39,875 nt of DNA from a virus: UHGV virus genome UHGV-0140636. One strand, given 5' to 3'. Below are positions 1-39,875 of this stretch, one piece after another (within the stretch, counting starts at the first letter, position 1; the number at the start of each line of letters is the position of its first letter). Below the pieces are notes generated by a model that was not told where the DNA came from, ran no database searches, and was given only the letters and a program-made list of their open reading frames with translations. Made by a program: the position numbers and the translations under genes.

Positions 1-1905
1 TGACCCGGCTATCTTTATGTAAACAATATCACCAACTACGGCAGACACTTTATCCAGCTCAATTGAATAGGTGAAGGCACCTGTACCAGCACTCATGATG
101 ATGTAGTACCTGGAGGGGTCAAGCCTTGGTTCTATTGTTAAAGTCCCAGCTGCTGCCACAGTGTAGTCGAGAAAGGTTCTCACCTGGAGGCTTGTATTTT
201 GTGGAAACCTCGCCCTTGCCCTGTTGAAAGCGGAATCCATCACTGCGTAAAGTGGGCGAACGTTGTTTCTGTAGGATCTAACCAGAACATCACTACCGTG
301 GAAGTCGTTGCTTTGTGATCCAGAAAGTGAGTGAACTGCCTCGACCTGGTTAATTGTCCCCTCTCCGACATAGCAGTCAGGGCTATTAACCACAAAATCG
401 ACGAACCTGATGTTTTGCGCAAAGTATGAGTTCAGGCGGAATGTGCTGTTTGTCGAGTTAACTACTGACTGAGCATTTGTGATTGAGTTGCCGACGATTG
501 CGTGAATAGAGTTGATAGTCACTTCCTGGCAGTCAACCAGAAGCACCGCATCGTAAACAAGGTCAGTGGCAAATCCATCACTTTTATAGACTTCAATGTT
601 TCCGATTTGCAGGGATGGCCTGTTTCTGGCTCGTACTCCGTTTTGCTTAACGTTGACGTGTACGTTATCGATAAATCCACCTGGCTCGCTGGCTGGGTTG
701 GTTAGGTCGATTCCAACAAATGCCCCAAGCCCTTCGCTGTCCTTGACAACAAACCCTTCAACGCCGTCACTCAGTTCGACAAACTTCCACCAGTTGTTTG
801 TGTTGAATCTGATGTCTACACCTACGTTACCTCGAACGGACTTCATCTTAACGGCCACGCACTGGAATTGCGTACCTTCAACCTGCTGCACGTTATAGCT
901 GCCGTATCCAGTGACATGCACTGAGCCGCTAAAAGCGTCGCCAATCAGCATGCCATTTACCCACGAATACTGTAGCACCGTCAGGTCATCACGCCCCTGT
1001 TGAGGACCGAAATGCGCTCCTAATTTGAACTTCGCCCGGTGCGCAGTGAACATTTCCTCCCTGAGTGGAGTAAGAATACCGTACCGACCATTTCCGTTTT
1101 CCAGGCGAATCATGAATTTTCCGATGTCGGTTTCTCCCTGGGAATAACTTGACTCCGGGTAGCTAACGGCCAGACCTACGGTCGATGCTGAGTCAGCATC
1201 CTTCACGCATAACTGGGTTTCTGTCCCAGCCGTATAAATTTTCACGCCATAGGGAACGGTTACGCACGCCGTTAGTGCGGAATCCCCTGTATGGTAGTTA
1301 TCCATATCCAGAGAAACACCATTTGTAGGGCTCACCAGATATTTTCCTGCTGGCCAATAGAGTACCTTAGCTCCGCAATTGGACCAGCGGTTTAGGGCAA
1401 GAGTGTCATCTGCAATACCATCTCCCTTTGCTCCGAAGTGGTAAGGGGTAAGGAGATAGGTGTTGTGCTGATGTTGAGTAATAGGTACAGAATCAGCATA
1501 TGGCTGTTTAACAATAACAAGCGCATCTCCTAGGCCAGTGTCAGGGTTTAATAATTGCTGTCGCAACTGATCCGGGTCATACTTCAGCACATTAGGAAAA
1601 TAGAACTGCTGCACACCGTATGCATCATAAACAGCCATCGAATGGCCTTGCACAGTTACGAACTTGGCAATCTGTCCGTTATATACCGGGTAACCAGCCG
1701 CATTAATGATGATTGGTTGCGAAACAGGAACGTGAGAACCGTCTTCGTTCTCTATATAAACCTGAATCTGGTTTTCAGGATTTACCGGGTCAGTGTCAAT
1801 TTTACCGATATAGATTTTGCCATTGGCTACGGCTTTAAAAGAACGAGCCATAGTGAAGAGTTGCGAAGGCATGCTCACTACAACATTGGCTGTAATGTCT
1901 GTCAT
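1..1905 (-). CDS. gp9: Tailspike protein, partial (start at 1905, 3' end beyond window start)
   Basis: Minus-strand ATG at 1905; N-terminus [34 protein letters not shown] matches the P22-family tailspike head-binding domain as recalled; open frame continues to position 1. Confidence 0.85.
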
Positions 1906-1963
1906 TTAATTTGCTCCAGATACAAGGAATCGCCGCAGCGTGGCTACGGTGAATTTTGGGCAT

Positions 1964-1990
1964 AAAAAAACCCAGCCGAAGCTGGGTCGT
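1964..1990 (-). terminator. Intrinsic terminator after ant, before tailspike
   Basis: Minus-strand hairpin CCCAGC-TTCG-GCTGGG followed by TTTTTTT. Confidence 0.7.
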
Positions 1991-2005
1991 TGCGTTGGTT
2001 ATCTG

Positions 2006-2884
2006 TCAGTAGTTATGTACTGAAGGAGGTAATTCTTTATTCTTAAGTCTCATCCATGCGGAAAGATTCGTTGGTCCGTCTGGCTCATTGATATCAACAT
2101 CTCGTGAGTGATTGATTAAAACGTCTCTCGCTATATCGATAATACGGGAGAACTCATAACCGCAGTCATGACATCTGCCGGAATAGTTCGATTGAATTTG
2201 TTTCAGCGCCGGATACAGTTCGCGGAATAATGCTTGTGAGCGGTTGGCATAATCCCATAGCCATACAAGGCTGTTTGCTTCTTTTTCAGAAAGCTCGTTG
2301 GTTTTCTTCTCTTGTTTGCCGATAAACTCGCCTTCAAGCACTACCCTGTGGATGTACTCTACGGCCAGCGGGATTTGTTCAATTGAAAGTTCATCAATGT
2401 TGTCAATACCAAAACGCTGATGAACCATATTGTATGCATCGTCATAGCGAAGTCCTTTCTTTCCTACCAGCATGTTTACTGCATCGCGTAGCGGTGTTCT
2501 TTCCTCAACAGTGGTTTTCTTTCCTTTTACATACTCGCCATGTTTGCGAATTGAAGGCAGAACTTCTGCTGTTACCCACTTGCGGAATTTGTGCGGGACT
2601 GAACCTTTATTGACTGCATCGCGGCAGCGCAGAACCAATGTATACATACCTGATTCGCTCACAATGCTTAGATTCTGCTCACCACCAAGGGTGTAACTTA
2701 AAGTTACTCCCTTTTCATCGTCATCAAGTGCAGTAAGCGCCTTGCGTGAGTTAGTCAAATCTAAAGCATCACAAACATCTTTAGCTACAAACCACAGCTC
2801 ACCGCACTTGTTGATGACGCGGATTTCACTGTCGCCGAATTTGAAGATGGTGAAATCGTTTTGTGCCTTTGCTATACTTTTCAT
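2006..2884 (-). CDS. ant: Antirepressor Ant, Bro-N type N-terminal domain
   Basis: 292 aa ORF in the position of P22 ant downstream of arc; N-terminal [30 protein letters not shown] resembles Bro-N domain. Confidence 0.75.
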
Positions 2885-2952
2885 GTCAATATTTCCTAAT
2901 CCGATTTGTTGATGCCGAAGCCCTGACTGTTACAGCAGTTGGGGCTTCAACT

Positions 2953-3114
2953 TTACGCACCAATGCGCCCTTCCTTCTTAAAGCTTTCCATTACTCGCTG
3001 ATAAATCTCAGAATTAACAGACCGACCATTTTCTTCCGCCACCTTGCGTACCAAATCCAATACTTCTTTAGGCCACCGCAAATTGAACTGTGGCATTTTG
3101 CTCATTCCTTTCAT
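2953..3114 (-). CDS. arc: Arc repressor
   Basis: MKGMSKMPQFNLRWPKEVLDLVRKVAEENGRSVNSEIYQRVMESFKKEGRIGA is near identical to P22 Arc as recalled; start taken at internal ATG 3114 preceded by GAGGTG. Confidence 0.9.
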   Translation of the reverse strand: MKGMSKMPQFNLRWPKEVLDLVRKVAEENGRSVNSEIYQRVMESFKKEGRIGA

Positions 3115-3128
3115 GTTCACCTCACAAT

Positions 3129-3177
3129 ATAGGTCCACAGTGGACCTATTGAGAATATAGTAGAGTGCTTCTATCAT
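3129..3177. promoter_or_regulatory. Divergent Pant/Pmnt control region with O_mnt (3129-3149) and O_arc (3157-3177)
   Basis: Palindrome ATAGGTCCACAGTGGACCTAT and ATAGTAGAGTGCTTCTATCAT match P22 mnt and arc operator sequences as recalled. Confidence 0.7.
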
Positions 3178-3204
3178 GTCAATACACTAACTTGGAGTGA
3201 TGGC

Positions 3205-3459
3205 ATGGCTAGAGATGATCCGCACTTTAACTTCCGTATGCCTTTGGAAGTAAGAGAAAAATTGAAATTAAGAGCCGAGGCTAACGGAAGGTCAATGAAC
3301 TCTGAGTTATTACAAATCGTTCAGGATGCACTATCAAAACCATCACCGATTACAGGATATCGCGACGAAGCTGAACGCTTGGCTGATCAGCAGGCTGAGC
3401 AGTTCAAGGCTATAGTGTTTGAGACACTTAAAAAGATTTATGAAAAGGATTTGAAATGA
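3205..3459 (+). CDS. mnt: Mnt repressor
   Basis: MARDDPHFNFRMPLEVREKLKLRAEANGRSMNSELLQIVQDAL matches P22 Mnt. Confidence 0.9.
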   Translation: MARDDPHFNFRMPLEVREKLKLRAEANGRSMNSELLQIVQDALSKPSPITGYRDEAERLADQQAEQFKAIVFETLKKIYEKDLK

Positions 3460-3791
3460 GATTTCTATCACTGTTCTTGTTAGCAGTTGTCTCTTCTTCC
3501 AGTGCTGAGCTGCGCGAGCTTCAAACGGGTAATGACCTTCTTTACAACATTCAACAAGGTAAAAAGGGTGATGATTTTTCATCGCTTTACATTACTGGAT
3601 ATTTGCGCGGAGTAACTGACTCATTGATACTAATTGGTTCTCTATGTCCTCCTGATGGCGTTGACATGTATCAATACACCGATATCGTTGAGAAATATCT
3701 AAACAAAAACCCAGAATCAAGAAATGAGAGTGCAGTTATACTAACCGCCCTAGCAGTAGGAAAAACATTTCCGTGCAAAAAGAATCAATAA
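3456..3791 (+). CDS. Small secreted protein, unknown function
   Basis: ATGA start-stop overlap with mnt; N-terminal signal peptide MRFLSLFLLAVVSSSSA; two Cys in mature part; AAGGA RBS. Confidence 0.6.
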   Translation: MRFLSLFLLAVVSSSSAELRELQTGNDLLYNIQQGKKGDDFSSLYITGYLRGVTDSLILIGSLCPPDGVDMYQYTDIVEKYLNKNPESRNESAVILTALAVGKTFPCKKNQ

Positions 3792-3806
3792 CAATAAGGG
3801 CTTAAA

Positions 3807-4196
3807 ATGAAATTGATTATAGCAATGGCTTTCCTTGTCTTCTCGTTTTCTGTCTCAGCAGAGTGCTGGGTCGTTGGAGATATGCACGGAATAAGCTATT
3901 CAGAACGAAATAATTTTCAACCGGAAGAAGATGGTTTTAGTGGAACATTCATCATTAAGACAAACGGTGAAGATGCCAGTATCACATATTCTGGGACGGA
4001 TGCGGGCGGCATGGCTTACAAAGCATTGTCTAAAAACTCCATCATTGGAATCGGCGCGAATGGCGAAACTCAACGAGTTATCGACTCATGGGTAATACAT
4101 CCTAATGGAACAGTTTTAATGTCGAAAACCATTTCTGGTTATGGGAATATGGATTCAACCAAAGCTTTTGTTGGAAAAGTAAAAAGAAAATGTTAA
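3807..4196 (+). CDS. Small secreted protein, unknown function
   Basis: Signal peptide MKLIIAMAFLVFSFSVSA followed by mature domain with Cys near both ends; 16 bp downstream of previous ORF. Confidence 0.6.
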   Translation: MKLIIAMAFLVFSFSVSAECWVVGDMHGISYSERNNFQPEEDGFSGTFIIKTNGEDASITYSGTDAGGMAYKALSKNSIIGIGANGETQRVIDSWVIHPNGTVLMSKTISGYGNMDSTKAFVGKVKRKC

Positions 4197-4220
4197 CGAT
4201 TGAATCCAATTCCCCATACG

Positions 4221-6062
4221 TTACTGCTGTGTTGCCTCAGTAGCAAGCAGCGGCCTGATGGCATTTGCAGCGTTACTCAACGCTCTTTCATAGGCTGGCG
4301 TTCCAGCTTTAGTGTTTGCCAGACGTAAGAGAGCATTCCTTGCTGCTTTGGACTCATACAAACGCATCATTGCACCAAAGCCAGCCTCAAGCCCCATTGA
4401 TACACCAAGAGTCGCAGTTGCGCCAATCGTCCTTATCCTGTTGGCTTGTGATTGCCCCGTCTGAGTTACTACATTTGCGGTGTCTGACCTTGCTGTTTGC
4501 TGTAGAACTTCATGAAGAGCATCAAGCTCTTTCATGTGCTTTCCAGAAAAAATAGTGTTGTAAATTTCACCGCCTGACTGAGATTTCAGCTTATTAACTT
4601 CAGTGATGAACTTGGCTGGAGAGTCACCGGCCTTTTCCGCTATTTTGCTGACGTAAGCTGCACGCATAGCATCTTTCCCTTTATCATCCAGGGCGCTCCA
4701 TATTCGTTTCACGTCAGATGGTTTTCTGCTTAATACAACGGTATTTATAAGTTCAGGACTGGCTTCACTGCTTGCCTTGTTGAGCTTGTTAGCAATGTTT
4801 TTATTAAGCACCTTATTATAAACGTTTGCATAATCGGAATTTGCTTTAAGGTATTTTGCTGCGTCTGATGCACCGAGGTTTTTAGCAACTGCGTTACGAA
4901 GGTCTTTTGACATTGCATTCTCTACCATATTGGTAGCTGCTTTTGCCTGGTTGGGGAAGACCATAGCATCTCCCTGAACATTAGATCTAAATGCTGTTCT
5001 GTGCTGACGCAAGAGATCAAACGTAACATCCAAATCAGTTGCAGGGTTTGCTAATTCTTCACGTAGGTTACGCAAGGATGTAAGCAGGCTTTGATTGGCA
5101 GACGTCCCAAGCCGTTCCTGTCTTGCGATCGCTGTATTCAGAGCATTCATGGTATTTGTGGTATCAACTGCGGCATTACCCATTTTATTGGTGACGTCAT
5201 TGATAACAGCGCCAGCGGCATCCTTCCGCCCCCTTAACGTGGTGGTAAGAGATTTCACCACATCATCAGGGTTGTACTCACCAAAACGGTCAAAATAATT
5301 ACTTACCAGCTTACTACGCGTTGCATATTGCTCCGCTCGCTTTGAGCCTGTCCCGAGCAAAGCCCCCTCGGCATCCTGAGTTAGGCCGCGAGTGAAAGCA
5401 TTTTTCGGCGGGATAACATCAGATGTCATTGGTGTCACGCCCATCGATTCTGATGTGGCAATTTTCTTCGCCACTTCTGGCGCAATATCACCTTTTATAG
5501 CCGTTATTCCACGCCCTATTCCCTTTGCTGCTGCGGAAAGAACACCCTGAGTGGCAAGGTTAACTCCGGCATTTTTAGCTGCATTTTGTGCGAAATCGCC
5601 TTTCTGATTTGCGGCCTCTGCCAGTGATCCAATAGCCATGCTTCCTGCCGTTCCAACTCCTGGAACTAAATACCCACCAATTGTTTCACCGGCTTGCGCG
5701 TAGGGGTCTGTCGGTCTGTCTACTGGACGATAAACATCATCCAAAACCTTGGGTCCACCAAGCCCCTGACTGATTGCATTAATCAGACTTGCGCCGCCCT
5801 GCAATACGTCAAATGGTATGTTTACCAGACCACGACCAGCCTGTTCTGCAATTTGCCCTGCACTTTGACCACCAGTGAGCCAATCGCCAGCTTGTTGCAT
5901 CAATGATGGTTCTTCCCGTGTTGGTGCATTATTGGCCTGATTAACTATTTGTTGCTGAACAGCCTGACCAGCAAAATACTCATCAATGGCGGTGCCAATA
6001 TCTTCGGTGCTCGTACCATCAGGAAAGGTAAATGTCTTACCGTTTGCAGTTACTTTCATCAT
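4221..6062 (-). CDS. gp16: Ejection (injection) protein gp16
   Basis: 613 aa; position and size match P22 gene 16; start [16 protein letters not shown]. Confidence 0.8.
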
Positions 6063-7484: not shown

Positions 7485-8177
7485 TTAAAACAACGAGCCA
7501 AGCAGACCAAGACCGCCGCCGATCGCAGCCCCCCACGGAGTTGATGAACCAATTAATTTCGCAAGTCCGGCCCCAGCAATAGCACCAGACGCACCTCCGC
7601 CAATAGCAGATTGCATTGCTGATGGTCTGTTGGCATTTGCCGCTGCAAGAGCCGCACTTTGCTGAGAAATCTGACTCATGTTGTTGGCATATGTTTGCCC
7701 GGCGTTTGCCTGCCCCTGAAGAGCGCCAAGACCGATATTTGCCAGGTTGTTGTAATTGTTCATTTGTCCAGATAGCCATTGCTGACCTAGCGTTGGTGCG
7801 ATTGTTGCTAACTGATTACTGGTTGCGGTGGAACCTAATCCACCTGTTGCTTCCGCTGCCGCCAGACTCTGATAACGAGCCTGACCAGCAAGATCTTTGT
7901 ACTGCTGAGAGTTGTAATACTGGTTAAGTGCCTGACCTTGCCCTTCCAGAGACGATAAGTTCTCGAGGCTGCCGACATACTTATCAGCCAGAGGAGTAAA
8001 CGGCTTCAGGTTGTTCATGATGGTGTTGAACTGCTGATTTTGCAGGTCTGCGGCATACTTCTGAGCTTCTGCTGCATACTTTGCGCTTTTATCAGAGCTG
8101 CCACCTTTCCCGCCTTTTTCAGGGCAATAAGGTTCCTCGCCGCGCAGTTTTCTGCCCAGCTTAAATGCATATAACAT
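7485..8177 (-). CDS. gp7: Ejection protein gp7
   Basis: 230 aa, Gly/Ala-rich C-terminus; synteny with P22 gene 7. Confidence 0.8.
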   Translation of the reverse strand: MLYAFKLGRKLRGEEPYCPEKGGKGGSSDKSAKYAAEAQKYAADLQNQQFNTIMNNLKPFTPLADKYVGSLENLSSLEGQGQALNQYYNSQQYKDLAGQARYQSLAAAEATGGLGSTATSNQLATIAPTLGQQWLSGQMNNYNNLANIGLGALQGQANAGQTYANNMSQISQQSAALAAANANRPSAMQSAIGGGASGAIAGAGLAKLIGSSTPWGAAIGGGLGLLGSLF

Positions 8178-8179
8178 GG

Positions 8180-8638
8180 CTATCTCCCGTGATTCAGGAA
8201 GTCGATTAGTTCTTCGCGTGTGGCGCTGTAAAACGTCACGTCATCAACGCCTTTGAAGTATTTCTTGATGGTTCCTACACGCTTAAGGCCAATCATTGCG
8301 CAGTACATCTGACCGTGGCGGAATTTGCGTGCAGCGAACGATGTGACGCACTGAACAGTGGTGTTAGTCAGAATGTATCGCCAGAACGCCAGCCCGATTT
8401 CCTTGCTGAAGCCACGAACCTCTGGCAGGTACATGGCGTGGCAATCGAATGTCAGCGGCTGAATCTCCTGATAGTAAACAATGCCGCCAAACTGACCGTG
8501 CACGTTAACCTCAAAGTAACGGCATTCAGGCTTGTAGTCGTATCCATCACCGTTGTTGCTCCCGGCAATAATGTCAGGGTGATTTCCGACTGCTTCGATC
8601 AGGTCGATGTTTCGCGTTGGTTTGAACTGAATCATCAC
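8180..8638 (-). CDS. gp14: gp14-like virion protein
   Basis: 152 aa ORF between needle and gp7 as in P22. Confidence 0.7.
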
Positions 8639-9588
8639 TGCTCCGCGATTATCTTGATGGTTGTGGCAGTAAACGCCGCCCCATTTGACTGAATGGTTAA
8701 CGTGCTGCCATTTGTGGCAAGAAAGCCGTCTTTATCCACGCTGAAGAACGTAGCTAACAGGATGTTATCGGTTGTTGTCGCCGAGTTACGACTGCTTACC
8801 AGTGTGTCAGGTACAGAACCGGAAAATGTTAGCTGCATTGACCTGTTGGAGGTTCCGCTGGGCCACGTCCCGACAATCGACAGCTTGAAGAACAGGGTTT
8901 TGTTCTCGTTGAACACAACCATCTTGTTGTTAACGGTGTCGAAGAATGGTGCCAACGTGCCTGATGACGGCGTGAGCGTTTTCAGCAGGCTAACAAGGTT
9001 GGTAGGCGCTGTTGGAATGGTTACCGATACTCCTGAGTAAACAACCTCTGATTTCTTGCGCGTGGTGGCATACTCAAGCGCAGATATTCTTGTTGAGTGA
9101 TCACCAACTGTGCTTTGTAGCGTCGAAATACTTCCCTCTGCCGCTGTGAGCCTGGTATCAAGTGCGTTGATATCGGTTGTATTCTGAGTTATTCGCGCAT
9201 CATGGTTTGCTAACTCAGATTCATTGGCAGCAATTCGCGTCTCGTGATCAGCCAGCTCTGTTTCGGCAGCCGTAATCCTTGTTTCATGATCTGCAAGAGT
9301 GCTTTCCGCTGCTGAGATTCTATGTTCATGATTGATGAGAGTTGCTTCAGCAGTTTCAATTCTGGATTCATGGTCTGCAAGGGTGACATCCTGCTCATCA
9401 TTCTTCACCTGTGCATCATAAGCCCCCTTCCCTGCTTCGTTGGCCTTGTTAGCCACATTACCAACATCAGTACCCTGTGCAATAACGTAAAGCAGATACG
9501 ACTGAGAGAAGATATTGCGTGGAAGGACTGATGTATCGAGCCGCGTAGCCTGGATGATTACTGGCTCATTGAGATTCGAATCAGCCAT
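8635..9588 (-). CDS. gp26: Tail needle gp26 with extended C-terminal knob domain
   Basis: N-terminus [43 protein letters not shown] matches P22 gp26; heptad-like ADHExRI repeats; 317 aa versus 233 aa in P22 implies extra C-terminal domain. Confidence 0.8.
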
Positions 9589-11006
9589 TACTCAATCCTT
9601 ATCTGGCAGCCAGACAGAGTTACAGGTGACTTCGTGATAACGCGCAATTTGAAGCCAACATTTTTCCTGATGCGCCCTACTCGCTTCCACAAAACGCGTT
9701 TGTCGTAAACGAACGGTTCATTCTGCTCAATCATCTGCTCACGCCCGTAATTGATGCCGTCAGTGGTTGCAGAGAGGAACAGGCGGTCGGCGTACTGCGC
9801 AACGCCAGTTGACGATTCAACTTCAAGGTCGAAAACTCTGGCGTTATCCGCTTTGAACAACGGAGTAAACAGCAGGTGTTCTTGCTGTAGCCCATACTGA
9901 CTACTGATATCGAACTGCAATTTCCCGGTCACCGATTCCAGCTTATCGCCGCACGTTATCTGATTGCCTTCGTAAATGAAGTCGATAGCGCGGTACACAT
10001 CGTCATACAGGCCTGTTTTCAGTACACACCATTGCGGACCATTGGCGCTTGAAGATGCGTCGTACACCAGAACATGGCGCGGAAGATGGATAATCAGCAG
10101 CTCATGAGCATCAAAGCGCAACGATTCCATCACGCCATCAGCCAGTTCATCAGCAGTGTAGGAGCGGAGGATTTTCTCAATGCTCGCGCTGGCGATTGGT
10201 GACACCTGCCCGGAGCCGATGATATACACAGACGGCGCACCTGTTGCCGGATTGCTGATGAACGCATAAGAATCAGCGAATGGAGTTTTGCAGTAAGTCC
10301 CGGCGATGCCTTTTTGCACCATCAGTGATGGCTGTGCGACATACAAAGCAGCACCAACTGTGGTTGCGCCAGTCAGGGAGAAATACTCAATCGTCGATGA
10401 ACCAAAGCAGACGATGAAGTCTCGCCATGTTCCGATGCCGATGATTCCGTCCGGCTGCGATTCTGCGCGATATTGTGCGCTGTAGCGGTCAGGGTGCGAT
10501 TCATCTTCAGGGTCAGTAATAAACCATGAATCAGTGCCGTCTTTTGACCACGCATAACGCCCACGTAAGCGAGTAATGTCACGAACAGAACCTAACTCAT
10601 ACTGCGTGAATCCGCTGTCTGTAGGCCAGTTTGAGACGGTTTTAACCGTGCCATCATAGCGGTATTCGACCAGTTGCCCGTTAACACCTACCGCCTGTGA
10701 TGTCCGACCATGTGCCATTGATACGCGACCACTTCCGGCAACATCACCGACTTCACTTTCGCCTTTGTACAGCTTGCCACCACACACGCGATAAACAGCA
10801 TTCTGCGCCATGTTGTACTCGACGCCACGCGATACGCCGTTCACATCAGAACGTTTGGCAATGCCCGGGAATGAGCGAAGATATCCGCTGCTGTTAAGGA
10901 TTTCTTTTGGTGTAGCCAACATATTCACTGGCAGATAGTCGATATAGTCGGCGTTTCGGAAGTCTTTGCCGACACCTTTCATAAGCGGAAGTTGCTGAAT
11001 CGGCAT
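9588..11006 (-). CDS. gp10: Tail accessory/hub protein gp10
   Basis: 472 aa, same size and position as P22 gp10. Confidence 0.8.
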
Positions 11007-11506
11007 TATTCGCTCCCGTTATCGCAAGGTTCCTTTCGGTGGAAGTAATTCCAACCGTTCCACTTCGCCAACTGGTTACCGCTACCAACAGGCATACGGT
11101 TTGGATAACCGGACTTACATTTAGCGGCTTTTGCTCTGTCCATTGCAGACAGTTTGACGAGTCGCTCTTTCCCGTATCTGGCAGTGGTTATAAGTTTTGC
11201 AGGCGCTTCCAGCGCATAATCCGGTGCAATGCGGCAGGCAAGGTTGAAAATGACAGCATTGATAGCGTTATTTGATAAACCGTGCTCATCGCCCGGATCT
11301 GGAGCGACATCTGCATCAGCGAAAATGTAACCAACGTTGATACCAGGTGACACATCACCGCCAAGCCATTCAGCCATCATCATTTCAAGGTCGTTGACGC
11401 CGTCTTCCATAGACTGCGGTTCGACATCGGTTAACGTGGCATTTGATGCCACACCGAGCTTACGTAATGCCGCAAGAACTAAATCACCCTTCGTTGTCAG
11501 GTTCAT
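11006..11506 (-). CDS. gp4: Head completion/tail adaptor protein gp4
   Basis: [33 protein letters not shown] resembles P22 gp4 N-terminus; start taken at ATG 11506 rather than the repeat-derived upstream extension. Confidence 0.8.
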
Positions 11507-11744
11507 CTGCTGCCGCCTTAGGTTTTCGACCAGGCTTTTTACGCTGTTTTTCTTCTGGCTCTGGATCTGGCTCTGGCTCTGGCTCTGGATCTGGCTCTGC
11601 AACATCCTTCAGAAGATCATCAGGATGTGCAAACCAGCCAGCATCCAGATATTCCTGAAGCTCTTCGGCTTTCACGATTTCAAAGTCGTAGCCAACGCCT
11701 TTCCACTTCTTCATGTCGCCATGACGAAAGATCATGTGTGTCAT
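11484..11744 (-). CDS. Small protein with acidic Glu-Pro/Asp-Pro repeat linker and basic tail
   Basis: ATG 11744 with GGAG 7 nt upstream directly after coat terminator; 86 aa [16 protein letters not shown]...[27 protein letters not shown]; overlaps gp4 start by 23 nt. Confidence 0.45.
11555..11599. repeat. Tandem hexanucleotide repeat (CTGGCT/CTGGAT), about 7.5 units
   Basis: Directly visible: ctggctctggatctggctctggctctggctctggatctggctctg. Confidence 0.9.
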
Positions 11745-26914: not shown

Positions 26915-27858
26915 GCAATCCCCCTGTCTGCAAACTTCCCTTCCCGAACTCCCGTTAACGAATCTTCCCTCAGCAGGTAATCAAAATCTGCCGTCCATCC
27001 CGTGTCGTTGTCTCCGAAGTAAAACGGCTTGGCCTGATGTACAAACGCCCTGACATACGCTCTGAAACCGTCCACGTTTGGCGTTTTCAGTTGCGGGATG
27101 ATTTTCTTCAGGCGGCGTTTGCGTTTCTCGTTGACTGCAACAGCGTGTGGCAGTCTGTCACCGACTTCGGTGTTGTAGGCGTTCAGGAAGGATTCGTAGT
27201 CGATTCGTTCTGCCTTGCGACGTTCAGGTTTAACCTGCCCATCGCCTCCCCCATTGGGGGGTAGGGGGGTATTATTTATATTCTTGTTAATACCTTCTTG
27301 TTCATGATGTGCGGTTTTTTGTGCGGCATCATGTGCGCTTTCATGTGCGGCATGTGCGCTGAAAGCCGCGCCATTACTGTCTTCGTCATGTGCGGCATCA
27401 TGTGCGGTTGTTTGTGCGGCATCATGTGCGGGTGAATTGTCCATTTTTTGAGCGTATTCATGGTAATTTGTGATGGTGATCACACGACCTTTTTGCTTCT
27501 CTCCATCAATGGAGATCATCCCCTCTTTCACAAAAACCTGAAGCATCCGCTCAACCTGATCACGGCTTGCCGGCTTGCCATGCCTGTCGCATAACTGAAG
27601 ACCTAAATCAGCTGCTGTCACAACCAGTTGACCGGGTTGCAGATGCCATTCATGACCTTTGAAATTCGCTTTGTATGGCTTTCTGGCGGCATTCAGGAGA
27701 AGGTTTTCCCACAGGGTGCGAAGATAAACATCTTTCGCCCATGACTGTTTCAGAATGCTCCGGTACAACGGAATGTAACCAGTTTTCTGGTTCTCCATCC
27801 TGTTGCTCCTGCGCTCGTGTGCGGCGCTGAAATCGTAGATTTTTGCTGTATTGCTCAT
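26911..27858 (-). CDS. gp18: Replication initiator (O-like, P22 gp18 type) containing ori
   Basis: N-terminus [10 protein letters not shown] like lambda O; internal iteron-encoded AHDAAQ repeats. Confidence 0.8.
27300..27432. repeat. Origin iterons (CATCATGTGCGG-type repeats, 5 or more copies) flanked by AT-rich tracts
   Basis: Directly visible repeats inside initiator gene. Confidence 0.75.
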
Positions 27859-37238: not shown

Positions 37239-37487
37239 AATAGCGGGTAAAATATTTCTCACACCTAAAAAACACCATTCCAATCAATCCCCTGCCGCTT
37301 CAAGTAGATGTCTGCAGGGGACACCATTTATCAGTTCGCTCCCATCCGTACCAGTCCGCAAAATCCCCTGAATATCAAGCCTTCCGTAGATTCACAGTTC
37401 GTAATGGTTCGCGTCAGATCGTTGACAGCCGCACTCCATGACGGGTAAAAAGTGGATAAAATAATTTTACCCACCGGATTTTTACCC
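37233..37487. other. attP: attP region: core matching tRNA-Arg 3' end (37312-37326) flanked by GGGTAAAA/TTTTACCC arm-type repeats
   Basis: CTGCAGGGGACACCA equals the 3' end incl. CCA of argW as recalled; 8-mer repeats at 37233, 37246, 37443, 37466, 37480. Confidence 0.6.
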
Positions 37488-38645
37488 ATGCTCACCGTTA
37501 AGCAGATTGAAGCAGCAAAGCCGAAAGAAAAACCATACCGCCTTCTCGATGGTAATGGCCTGTACCTTTATGTTCCTGTATCCGGGAAAAAGGTATGGCA
37601 GCTTCGCTACAAGATTGACGGTAAGGAGAAAATCCTGACCGTCGGAAAATATCCGCTTATGACTTTGCAGGAGGCAAGAGATAAAGCATGGACCGCGAGG
37701 AAAGACATCTCGGTTGGCATCGATCCGGTAAAAGCGAAAAAGGCTTCGTCTAACAACAATTCCTTTAGTGCGATTTACAAGGAATGGTACGAGCACAAGA
37801 AGCAAGTCTGGTCAGTAGGGTATGCGACTGAACTTGCAAAAATGTTTGATGACGACATTTTACCTATCATCGGCGGCCTTGAAATTCAGGATATTGAGCC
37901 GATGCAACTGCTGGAAGTAATCCGTAGATTTGAAGATCGCGGTGCAATGGAGCGAGCCAACAAAGCCCGCAGAAGATGCGGCGAGGTTTTCCGTTACGCT
38001 ATTGTCACTGGTAGGGCTAAATATAACCCGGCACCTGACCTTGCTGACGCCATGAAGGGATACCGCAAGAAGAACTTCCCATTTTTACCTGCCGACCAGA
38101 TCCCGGCATTCAACAAAGCACTTGCAACATTTTCAGGAAGTATCGTATCGCTCATTGCGACCAAAGTTTTACGCTACACAGCCCTAAGAACAAAAGAGCT
38201 TCGTTCCATGCTATGGAAGAACGTCGATTTTGAAAACAGGATTATCACCATCGACGCCAGTGTGATGAAGGGACGCAAAATTCATGTTGTCCCGATGTCA
38301 GACCAGGTGGTTGAACTTCTCACTACACTAAGCTCAATCACTAAACCAGTATCAGAGTTTGTTTTTTCCGGGCGCAACGATAAGAAGAAGCCAATCTGCG
38401 AGAACGCGGTGCTACTTGTGATCAAACAAATCGGCTATGAAGGTCTGGAAAGCGGTCACGGATTCAGGCATGAATTCAGCACGATTATGAACGAGCACGA
38501 ATGGCCTGCCGACGCCATTGAAGTGCAACTGGCACATGCCAACGGCGGATCTGTACGTGGAATTTACAACCATGCTCAGTATCTCGATAAGCGCAGAGAA
38601 ATGATGCAATGGTGGGCGGACTGGCTTGATGAAAAGGTAGAGTGA
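37488..38645 (+). CDS. int: Tyrosine integrase, P4/IntS type
   Basis: N-terminal arm-binding-like domain MLTVKQIEAAKPKEKPYRLLDGNGLYLYVPVSGKKVWQLRY; C-terminal catalytic HxxR...Y region; alternative upstream ATG 37452 lies within repeat region. Confidence 0.85.
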   Translation: MLTVKQIEAAKPKEKPYRLLDGNGLYLYVPVSGKKVWQLRYKIDGKEKILTVGKYPLMTLQEARDKAWTARKDISVGIDPVKAKKASSNNNSFSAIYKEWYEHKKQVWSVGYATELAKMFDDDILPIIGGLEIQDIEPMQLLEVIRRFEDRGAMERANKARRRCGEVFRYAIVTGRAKYNPAPDLADAMKGYRKKNFPFLPADQIPAFNKALATFSGSIVSLIATKVLRYTALRTKELRSMLWKNVDFENRIITIDASVMKGRKIHVVPMSDQVVELLTTLSSITKPVSEFVFSGRNDKKKPICENAVLLVIKQIGYEGLESGHGFRHEFSTIMNEHEWPADAIEVQLAHANGGSVRGIYNHAQYLDKRREMMQWWADWLDEKVE

Positions 38646-38798
38646 GCGACCTTAAACTATCGAATAGCACAAAGTCTTGCAATCCAGTGCAAAGCTTTGT
38701 GCGCCTCAGTTTTGTCTAAGCATTCTACTGAAAACATAGTAAAATCGGTAACGGCTGGAAATCATTCAATACTCGCACTATCGGAAGTTCACCAGCCA

Positions 38799-38840
38799 GC
38801 CGCAGTATTCTGCCATGACAAGTTGCTGCGGCTTTTATGT
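38799..38840 (+). terminator. Candidate terminator downstream of int
   Basis: GCCGCAG...CTGCGGC stem with large loop followed by TTTTAT. Confidence 0.4.
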
Positions 38841-39134
38841 TGAACGGATCAACAGCCAGACCAGCAGACACGCCACCACTGGCACAGAAAAATCCATAAG
38901 GCTTGCCAAATCCCACACGCGCGGATCAAAACCGCCCCACCACGGCATATTCATACGCTTGCCATGTCCGAACATTTCAATCCAGCGATATTCTGCCTGG
39001 GTGTGTTCACGCGCAATGAAGAACGTACAACCGGCTATCGCTCCGTAAGCCCAGTTCCCGGTAAAAAGACCAATCAGTAGCTGCGCAGCCACAGCACAAA
39101 GTGCATGAAGTAAGGGTGTTATATCCATTTTCAT
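38835..39134 (-). CDS. Small hydrophobic membrane protein, unknown function
   Basis: About 97-100 aa, two or three hydrophobic segments; start ATG 39134 or 39128 (AGGA upstream of the latter). Confidence 0.5.
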   Translation of the reverse strand: MKMDITPLLHALCAVAAQLLIGLFTGNWAYGAIAGCTFFIAREHTQAEYRWIEMFGHGKRMNMPWWGGFDPRVWDLASLMDFSVPVVACLLVWLLIRST

Positions 39135-39170
39135 CCTACCCAATAAAACGGGGCGCTCGGCCCCTTAATA

Positions 39171-39350
39171 TTATTTAGACGCAAGCGCCGCCTCAATTGC
39201 AGATAACATTTGTCTTAATTCTGCGTTTTCTTCTTCCAGTGCTGTTATTCTGTCGTCTGACTCTCTGGCTACCTGAACAAGCAAGCCAGTAACACCAGAA
39301 TAATCTACAGTGTAATACCGTTCACCTTCTTTACCTAAAGGATGACAAAA
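39171..39350 (-). pseudogene. Orphan 3' gene fragment without start codon
   Basis: 59 codons ending ...YTVDYSGVTGLLVQVARESDDRITALEEENAELRQMLSAIEAALASK, preceded by in-frame stop; followed by hairpin GGGGC-CGAGC-GCCCC plus GTTTTATT on the minus strand. Confidence 0.35.
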
Positions 39351-39711
39351 TCACATAAATAATTTAAAAATCATAGCATTAGATTACTTAATGATTAAAT
39401 AATAGACTGCAAAACGCGACAAAACACAACATATCCAGTCACTATGAATCAACTACTTAGATGGTATTAGTGACCTGAGACAGAGCATTAGCGCAAGGTG
39501 ATTTTTTGTCCTCTTGCGCTAATTTTTTGCCACACAACAGTCACATCTTCAAAAAATATGCAAAGCTTAGGGTTAATCGGCGGATGATTTTTGTCCATTC
39601 ATTTTGCGCGGGTAAGTTATGTGGTGGGTTATCGGCATCCTTTCCGTGGTTGTCATCGTGGCGACGCTTGTCGTTAGGTCACTTCTGCAGGATATTGATA
39701 ATGACTATTAG

Positions 39712-39875
39712 CCATAAGTGGTTTCAACGCTTTGGGTAATGTAGTAGGCCACCCAGTTACCTGACTCATTAAATCTGTAAGCACAATTCAAACGAATCGG
39801 ACCGATATTATTGAATGTGCTGAGCGTTGTCCCACCAATACCATTTTTAACCAAAACTGTTGGGTTAGCAGATGA
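39712..39875 (-). CDS. 3' end of a minus-strand ORF running off the window end (possibly tailspike C-terminus if the genome is circular here)
   Basis: 54 stop-free codons ending ...NESGNWVAYYITQSVETTYG; same codon phase (mod 3) as the tailspike at window start; weak support. Confidence 0.3.

Follow-up and report, generated by a model that had tools for sequence, protein, structure and literature searches.

In P22-like phages, int and the tailspike gene converge on a slot whose content varies among close relatives: it holds gtrABC in P22, oac in Sf6 and an O-acetylase gene in the prophage 611R6. Here we analyse this slot in the virus genome UHGV-0140636, a P22-like Escherichia coli phage (Lederbergvirus) with a full genome of 39,875 bp (the window). 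The tailspike gene runs on the minus strand from 1905 to position 1 in exactly 635 codons and resumes in frame from 39875 to a stop at 39708–39710; the window is therefore a complete, circularly permuted genome that was cut within this gene. The slot lies in the same place, at 38646–39707 (1.06 kb), between convergent int and tailspike genes. In contrast to P22 and Sf6, it carries no gtr or acyltransferase gene, and its sole live gene encodes a 97-residue predicted membrane protein (MP) typical of lambda-like tail-fibre modules. We propose that the slot is probably a mosaic, in which one functional cargo gene stands amid the scars of integration-module exchange; this would include the integrase-mediated capture of a tail-fibre gene fragment (TF′) together with MP, an att half-site that is now inert, and expression of MP by late read-through.

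The attP–sib region of lambda and HK022 is one of the closest described counterparts. The same arm-type sites, integration host factor (IHF) site, attP-side core-type site and sib/tI hairpin are found here, in the same order and orientation relative to int. However, the P′ arm, the cognate int and xis are absent, leaving a half-site only; the overlap differs by a C-to-T change, a tail-fibre gene fragment forms the other flank, and the integrase of the phage, which is of the unrelated IntS type, has an attP of its own that lies upstream of int. This integrase belongs to the IntS–TorI module described in KplE1, HK620, Sf6 and CUS-3, from which the module of the window does not differ: int is 95–97% identical in DNA to the int genes of Sf6, HK620 and CUS-3, the identical 16-nt core stands upstream of int, and a small AlpA/TorI-like gene adjoins the core. 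The attP relic in the slot is thus foreign to the resident module. Secondary-site lysogens of lambda form attR at secondary attachment sites, and the junction described below has the same hybrid structure of P arm, overlap and target flank, with a core-like target (6/7 in the overlap and 6/7 to the composite on one side) and a crossover within the overlap. It differs in that the target is a gene of another phage rather than the host chromosome, in that the scar is found within a viable, circular phage genome and not at the end of a prophage, and in that no reciprocal attL-type junction was found.

Composition of the slot

The elements that carry the argument are given below in the order of the window.

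38835–39128, minus strand: MP gene, 97 aa, three predicted helices, family phrog_1443 (profile match, AlphaFold2, dN/dS).
39150–39164, minus strand: hairpin with a GC-only 5-bp stem and GTTTTATT behind it, the former tail-fibre gene's terminator (−11.7 kcal/mol; T-run).
39171–39336, minus strand: TF′, a pseudogene made of the last 54–55 codons of a lambda-like distal side-tail-fibre gene of the S74 type (protein alignment, phrog_4563).
39323–39343, plus strand: hybrid att core, CACCTTC (tail-fibre), TTTACCT (overlap) and AAAGGAT (HK022 attP) (alignments to HK022 attP and PhiR11_1).
39337–39486, plus strand: orphan P arm of an HK022/lambda-type attP (identity to HK022 attP; arm-type and IHF sites).
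39487–39527, plus strand: sib/tI hairpin with T6, co-oriented with int (homology to HK022 sib; fold energy).
39533–39707, no strand assigned: spacer of ~180 bp that travels with this tailspike type (survey of E. coli genomes).
39708–39875, minus strand: 3′ end, 55 codons and stop, of the 690-aa tailspike gene (in-frame translation across the window ends).

Together, MP and TF′ form the 3′-terminal part of a lambda-like side-tail-fibre module. The distal side-tail-fibre gene of lambda-like phages and prophages is followed by the same GC hairpin and then by the same MP gene; this hairpin, which lies 21 nt upstream of the MP start in the window, is conserved in intact modules. The part of TF′ at 39171–39335 is identical at 52 of 54 positions to residues 293–346 of the 346-aa tail-fibre protein of the lambda-like phage PhiR11_1, and TF′ matches the 'tail fiber' profile phrog_4563 with an expectation value (E) of 2e-28. 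The Peptidase_S74 domain of the intact parent is located at residues 227–278, upstream of the part that was kept, so that TF′, with residues 293–346 of 346, is not a complete S74 fibre. Its frame is open from 39171 to 39350 and has no proper start but an internal TTG only. An earlier note on this DNA, made from the letters alone, had described an orphan 3′ gene fragment with its own terminator, which we can now identify as this end of a tail-fibre gene with its GC hairpin and T-run on the minus strand. The other elements listed in that note were likewise found at or near the places it gave.

TF′ is joined, within an HK022-type 7-bp overlap, to a complete orphan P arm and sib/tI, and these abut the spacer and tailspike gene as they do in P22-like prophages integrated at att-lambda. 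The stretch 39323–39532 (P arm and sib) shares 88.6% identity with the HK022 attP/sib region, 97% with that of the P22-like phage Gally, whose Int is 96% identical to HK022 Int, and 83.5% with lambda 27534–27708. The arm-type site CAGTCACTAT at 39436–39445 is the only perfect arm-type consensus in the genome, and a second arm-type site, AGGTCACTAA, is found on the minus strand at 39467–39476. Between them, the IHF site at 39447–39459 is one of two perfect IHF consensus matches in the genome. The AT-rich tract with a strong hairpin that the earlier note had pointed out is thus part of an attachment site: the GC content is 25–26% at 39300–39449, and the hairpin at 39487–39522 folds with −23.5 kcal/mol (z = −4.1, with 0/200 shuffles folding as well), its T6 being present on the plus strand only. 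In the HK022 record X51962, the stretch homologous to 39487–39527 is annotated as 'sib transcription processing site'. The lambda terminator tL3, first considered as a candidate for this hairpin, was rejected when the sequence search identified the attP-adjacent sib/tI. In porcine O139:H1 and enterotoxigenic E. coli (ETEC) strains, P22-like prophages at att-lambda have a right end almost identical to the spacer, sib hairpin and distal P arm of the window; their core-proximal part is of the lambda type and abuts ybhB. When HK022 Int and Xis were searched against the window by tblastn, nothing better than E = 0.5 was obtained; the lack of a cognate Int and Xis in the genome suggests that the fossil half-site is inert.

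The junction inside the att core

The attB of HK022 is located in the torS–torT spacer (PMC6814406) and has a 21-bp B–O–B′ structure (PMC7736782). Read from this spacer in E. coli K-12, it is GCACTTTAGGTGAAAAAGGTT. The cores to be compared are as follows (left site / overlap / right site, with HK022 attP in window orientation).

HK022 attP: CAACTTA / TTCACCT / AAAGGAT
Intact tail-fibre gene: CACCTTC / TTCGCCT / TCAGATC
Phage 611R6: CACCTTC / TTCACCT / AAAGGAT
Window and PEC41: CACCTTC / TTTACCT / AAAGGAT

Strand exchange by tyrosine integrases occurs in the 7-bp overlap, and it is within this overlap that the parentage switches, being of the tail-fibre type on the left and of the attP type on the right. 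The right site is identical to that of HK022 attP, and the left site matches the attP/attB composite at 6/7 positions. The overlap TTTACCT of the window matches the HK022 overlap TTCACCT at 6/7 positions, and the overlap of 611R6 matches it at 7/7. Within the whole window, 39323–39343 is the best core-like 21-mer (19/21 to the composite). Each 21-mer on both strands of the 8.2-kb PhiR11_1 locus was also scored against the attP and attB cores, and the intact tail-fibre site, CACCTTCTTCGCCTTCAGATC, ranks first of the 16,342 positions.

We read this junction as a fossil attR-type scar, which would have been left when an HK022-type Int acted on a secondary site in the tail-fibre gene of another phage. 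A P22-like ancestor carrying an Int of HK022 specificity would have recombined its attP with a secondary att site in the tail-fibre gene of a lambda-like phage or prophage. Such an event would give the attR-type junction (P arm–O–TF′) and capture TF′ with MP at the same time. A later exchange may then have installed the present IntS/argW module, which has its own attP upstream of int and would be regulated without sib.

Several observations weigh against this reading. The composite score of the tail-fibre site, 15, is shared with two other 21-mers, among which it is alone in having 14/21 matches to attB, and its 6/7 overlap match is also present in lower-scoring sites. At the B-side core-type site, the pseudo-attB is a poor match (about 3/7). 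No reciprocal junction, in which P′ and the overlap would be joined to the 5′ part of the tail-fibre gene, was present in 5,426 complete E. coli genomes, so that the integration event would be old and is read from one scar only. In addition, lambda-like prophages exist that have the tail-fibre–MP module and an HK022-type attP in one genome; an intramolecular route is therefore possible, and the order of events cannot be reconstructed uniquely. Finally, the two parents share 13/18 bases around the junction, and this microhomology could in principle have guided an illegitimate recombination in which Int had no part.

The last point leads to the main alternative for the origin of the junction, namely that TF′ and the P arm were joined by Int-independent illegitimate or short-homology recombination, for example of the Red/RecT type or microhomology-mediated, the coincidence with the att core being local similarity only. 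Besides the shared bases and the missing reciprocal product, this agrees with the highly mosaic nature for which lambdoid and P22-like phages are known, and with the other junctions in the slot, since the IntS 3′ remnants behind sib in these phages (Gally and 611R6) do not coincide with att cores. Against it, the change of parent takes place inside the 7-bp overlap, one flank of which is an intact attP core-type site, and no sequence in the 8.2 kb is more core-like than the site used. Moreover, 611R6 keeps the phage overlap TTCACCT and not the tail-fibre overlap TTCGCCT, which is the outcome that strand exchange at the overlap edges would give. We therefore regard an Int-independent join as unlikely, while giving it real weight, and favour the action of Int.

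Turnover of the slot and the resident integration module

The resident module is made up of the following features.

37312–37327, plus strand: working attP core of the IntS module, the 3′ end of argW, a tRNA-Arg gene (sole exact match to CTGCAGGGGACACCAT in the genome).
37488–38645, plus strand: int, an IntS/P4-type tyrosine integrase of 385 aa from the ATG at 37488 (Pfam Arm-DNA-bind_3, Phage_int_M and Phage_integrase).
38687–38712, plus strand: candidate int terminator, a weak hairpin with a T-run (pattern scan; the fold of −5.4 kcal/mol, z = 0.04, is unexceptional).

The sequence CTGCAGGGGACACCAT is the 16-nt core of KplE1 and HK620, and in the IntS module family this attP core, the 3′ end of argW, lies upstream of int and overlaps the int promoter (PMC2951348). 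The record of HK620 has the attP core annotated at the equivalent place upstream of int, as well as a terminator directly past the int stop, at about the position of the weak hairpin 38687–38712. In the prophage 611R6, the argW tRNA ends at or abuts the position of this core. Since the core is upstream of int, the slot has no working attP, and the placement of attP next to the slot together with int, as the earlier note had it, is incorrect for this integrase family.

A comparison of relatives shows how the slot has changed. The cassette MP–TF′–O–P arm–sib is accompanied by IntS in the window and in 611R6, where an O-acetylase gene is inserted before the tailspike gene, 300 bp from MP. Another integrase, which adjoins sbcB, accompanies the same cassette in the PEC41 remnant, and O139 strains have a related right end with a lambda-type core, which represents a third integration type. 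Gally has a working HK022-type int–attP–sib region followed directly by the last ~85 nt of an IntS gene with its 3′ untranslated region (locus 3205–3400) and then by MP; 22 nt of the same junction between sib and the IntS 3′ end are present in 611R6 (locus about 3200–3225). The occurrence of IntS remnants and HK022-type relics in turn points to a repeated reciprocal swapping of integration modules at the slot. The suggestion of a recombination hotspot is thereby borne out, given a truncated tail-fibre gene fused to an orphan att half-site here, and an O-acetylase gene and other integrase relics in the same place in relatives.

Two side observations concern these relatives. The arrangement in Gally, with its IntS remnant behind sib, mirrors the relic of the window. 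In E. coli PEC41, a heavily deleted P22-like prophage remnant lies between sbcB and dacD. Its tailspike gene and cassette are those of the window and adjoin dacD, with a umuD-like pseudogene beside them, and the tailspike gene is joined on directly to the early-left genes.

Fate of the sib/tI hairpin

Transcripts that run from int along the plus strand meet three hairpins in turn: the weak one at 38687–38712, a stronger one and tI. The second of these is as follows.

38797–38840, plus strand: terminator-like hairpin, GCCGCAG...CTGCGGC followed by TTTTAT (fold −18.9 kcal/mol, z = −2.87).

This hairpin, which is also found in the lambda-like phage PhiR11_1, would be met just ahead of the region antisense to MP. 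One alternative is that sib/tI still retro-regulates the resident int as it does in lambda, where RNase III cuts the pL read-through transcript at sib and the int mRNA is degraded. The hairpin is intact, strongly folded and co-oriented with int, and it is 97–99% conserved among cassette-carrying phages. However, sib is 840 nt past the int stop here, behind two hairpins and an antisense gene. The functional attP is upstream of int, and the 611R6 prophage keeps int, cassette and tailspike contiguous, which means that integration does not separate sib from int and that the lambda logic cannot tell the two states apart. The intS genes are furthermore autoregulated from a promoter that overlaps attL and are uncoupled from pL (PMC2951348). 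Retro-regulation of IntS by sib is thus very unlikely. Probably, tI is still in use as a terminator on the plus strand, where it would keep int-direction transcripts from running antisense into the tailspike gene.

The membrane protein gene

The MP gene ends with a stop at 38835–38837. The earlier note had described a hydrophobic protein of 97–102 aa on the strand opposite to int, and both lengths have a basis: the longest mechanically called open reading frame (ORF) is 102 aa from the TTG at 39143, while the start conserved among homologues is the ATG at 39128 (MDITPLL..., 97 aa), with AGGA 5 nt upstream. The profile phrog_1443, whose function is unannotated, matches residues 1–93 with E = 3.9e-56. 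MP carries every invariant residue of a 64-sequence family alignment, in which 21 positions are invariant; these are mainly polar and clustered in AREHTQAEYRW...R...P.WGGF...W...D. The invariant motif REHTQAEYRW...R...P.WGGF...W...D is shared by 414 homologues. A profile search of 1.8 billion representatives gave 438 clusters at 50% identity, all of them stand-alone proteins of 58–146 aa, with no informative fusions.

The protein was examined by modelling and hydropathy. The AlphaFold2 model has a mean predicted local distance difference test score (pLDDT) of 94.5 with helices at residues 4–23, 26–52 and 74–96, and hydropathy is high at residues 1–27 and 73–96. The ratio of non-synonymous to synonymous substitution rates (dN/dS) against other E. 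coli copies is 0.09–0.29, so MP is a functional gene under purifying selection. Taken with the model, this suggests that MP is a functional inner-membrane protein of three helices. That it is an accessory and not a core gene, as had been supposed, follows from its distribution in the phage collection: most copies belong to lambda-like coliphages, where they stand 3′ of the side-fibre genes, and a few P22-like phages have one.

The expression of MP can be considered from both strands of the slot. On the minus strand no terminator-like site was found from the tailspike stop to the hairpin 39164–39150, the reversed tI lacking a T-run; late antiterminated transcription should therefore reach MP. 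Most likely, MP would be the last gene of the late operon, transcribed by read-through, with at most weak expression in lysogens.

Two findings count against this picture of MP. Promoter-like matches upstream of MP are weak and no commoner than in shuffled sequence, leaving no convincing lysogen promoter. In addition, most MP homologues across Proteobacteria (the family occurs in the gamma-, beta-, alpha- and deltaproteobacteria) are in non-phage chromosomal contexts, which argues against a phage-specific role.

What might MP do? One alternative is that MP is expressed by the prophage as a lysogenic-conversion or superinfection-exclusion factor, which changes O-antigen or lipopolysaccharide (LPS) or blocks DNA entry in the manner of gtr, oac, SieA, Imm or HK97 gp15. 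The slot is a classic one for conversion genes, as the O-acetylase gene 300 bp away in 611R6 illustrates, and MP is a small predicted inner-membrane protein under purifying selection. In E. coli, MP is usually 3′ of a lambda-like side-tail-fibre gene (PhiR11_1, VR50, SMS-3-5, FDAARGOS_1249 and M2021-10044802), and in a P2-like prophage of Leclercia an MP homologue adjoins an S74-type fibre gene; directly 3′ of an S74 receptor-binding fibre gene is a typical place for receptor-linked exclusion genes. One Aeromonas homologue also stands beside two lipid A acyltransferase genes. Compared with P22 SieA, T4 Imm and HK97 gp15, MP is likewise a small, predicted multi-helix membrane protein carried as cargo near tail genes. 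However, it has no detectable kinship with these in sequence or fold, and its family is widespread in non-phage chromosomes. No similarity of MP to GtrA/B/C, Oac, SieA or Imm was detected, and no ORF of the slot matched GtrA, a glycosyltransferase or an acyltransferase in Pfam or NCBIfam. Scans of MP with Pfam, NCBIfam and PADLOC, the last covering defence families, returned noise only; a profile search of PDB sequences gave no match, and no specific structural relative of the fold was found in PDB or BFVD. Among homologues in other species, 3/56 follow an S74 gene, the neighbours being mainly housekeeping genes with no recurrent partner. The absence of a significant lysogen promoter and the terminator immediately upstream of MP also speak against expression by the prophage. 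In phage Kapi1, overexpression of candidate proteins from this region caused no LPS change, these being different proteins from MP (bioRxiv 10.1101/2021.04.09.439263). On balance, a conversion or exclusion factor of this kind is rather improbable. The idea that MP is a constant companion of S74-type fibres was rejected, since it holds for only those 3 of 56 homologues outside E. coli.

Our best guess, itself doubtful, is an envelope-level role of MP linked to receptor-binding fibres, for example the exclusion of other phages or the protection of the infected cell. A more specific and clearly more speculative proposal would be that the small inner-membrane proteins of phrog_1443 form a new family, which temperate phages have repeatedly placed beside their receptor-binding fibres and whose REHTQxEYRW...PxWGGF motif acts on a conserved envelope component, for example to exclude related phages or to change a surface receptor, the mechanism being unrelated to that of Gtr/Oac, SieA, Imm and Cor; the fossil att junction would then record the capture of cargo by Int between attP and the tail-fibre pseudo-att site of another phage.

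Two chromosomal and prophage neighbourhoods of MP are worth recording. In Aeromonas rivipollensis (locus 8001–11645), the non-prophage homologue adjoins genes for a RIO1-like kinase and two LpxL/M-like lipid A acyltransferases, the only MP context that hints at a link with LPS. In prophages integrated at att-lambda (PhiR11_1 locus 1–3456; FDAARGOS_1249 locus 1012–4934), genes for an FRG-domain protein, a 350-aa hypothetical protein and a HEPN (RiboL-PSP) protein lie between MP and attR, and this stretch looks like an island of defence genes in the 'b region' of lambda.

Other elements of the slot and its surroundings

Two further elements complete the slot.

38741–38808, no strand assigned: element of ~68 nt downstream of the MP gene, also present in the ykgJ–ecpE spacer of E. 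coli K-12 (alignment, about 92% identity).
39619–39711, plus strand: 30-aa ORF whose stop overlaps the tailspike stop (mechanical ORF list).

The equivalent of 38741–38808 is labelled 'attP' in the record of HK633, on the basis of similarity to K-12 ykgJ–ecpE. We rejected it as a real attP, because the KplE1/HK620 core is upstream of int and because the prophages at att-lambda carry the element internally, simply 3′ of the MP gene. It may be a third att relic or a repeated element. In prophages, the Prokaryotic Genome Annotation Pipeline (PGAP) names it a fragment of a 'capsid/nucleocapsid protein'. An Rfam scan gave no match in the slot.

The tailspike gene is annotated as encoding a 690-aa 'phage head-binding domain' protein in PEC41 (99.3% DNA match) and W13-16. 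The 348-bp stretch made of its last 55 codons and the spacer occurs in 21/5,426 complete E. coli genomes, and the same tailspike gene adjoins every copy inspected. The matches listed for this stretch are all of pig or wild-boar origin (ETEC and O139:H1 strains), a hint that the receptor may be the O139 O-antigen.

The earlier note had also described small overlapping ORFs at the edge of the window. The ORF on the minus strand proved to be the last 55 codons of the tailspike gene rather than a small ORF, whereas the plus-strand ORF of 30 aa exists, and one may ask whether it is a real gene for a small membrane peptide, like a type I toxin or a polymerase inhibitor. It would encode a charged tail behind a clean hydrophobic helix, its antisense overlap with the convergent 3′ end of the tailspike gene is suggestive, and in every copy inspected it is found alongside this tailspike type. 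However, it has no family match and no tblastn match in phages, and PGAP does not call it in PEC41, W13-16 and EC556, the genomes inspected. Its Shine–Dalgarno sequence is weak, and no promoter was found. Its copies are >99% identical and their one difference is non-synonymous, so that conservation is uninformative. The 30-aa ORF as a real gene is unsupported, and we consider it the least probable of the alternatives weighed here.

Elsewhere in the genome, two plus-strand ORFs of 111 and 129 aa (3456–3791 and 3807–4196) with signal-peptide-like N-termini lie between the gene for a gene-16-like ejection protein and arc/mnt-like genes, at roughly the position where P22 carries sieA. These are possible further cargo genes.

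Implications

The locus is a further case of known processes, namely slot mosaicism, secondary-site recombination by Int and the carriage of morons; what distinguishes it is a well-preserved fossil half att site together with a cargo gene from a widespread, uncharacterised family. It explains the recurrent "orphan tail fiber protein" coding sequence and the AT-rich hairpin region in several phage and prophage records, and it warns annotators that the attP of IntS-type phages is not downstream of int. Strongly conserved as well as widespread, the small membrane proteins of phrog_1443 offer an easy target for a first functional test. As a clear sequence-level example of temperate phages trading integration modules and cargo, the slot indicates that a P22-like lineage has cycled through three or more integration specificities with its tailspike end unchanged, and the half att site fused to the tail-fibre gene of another phage points to the integrase as an agent of gene capture.

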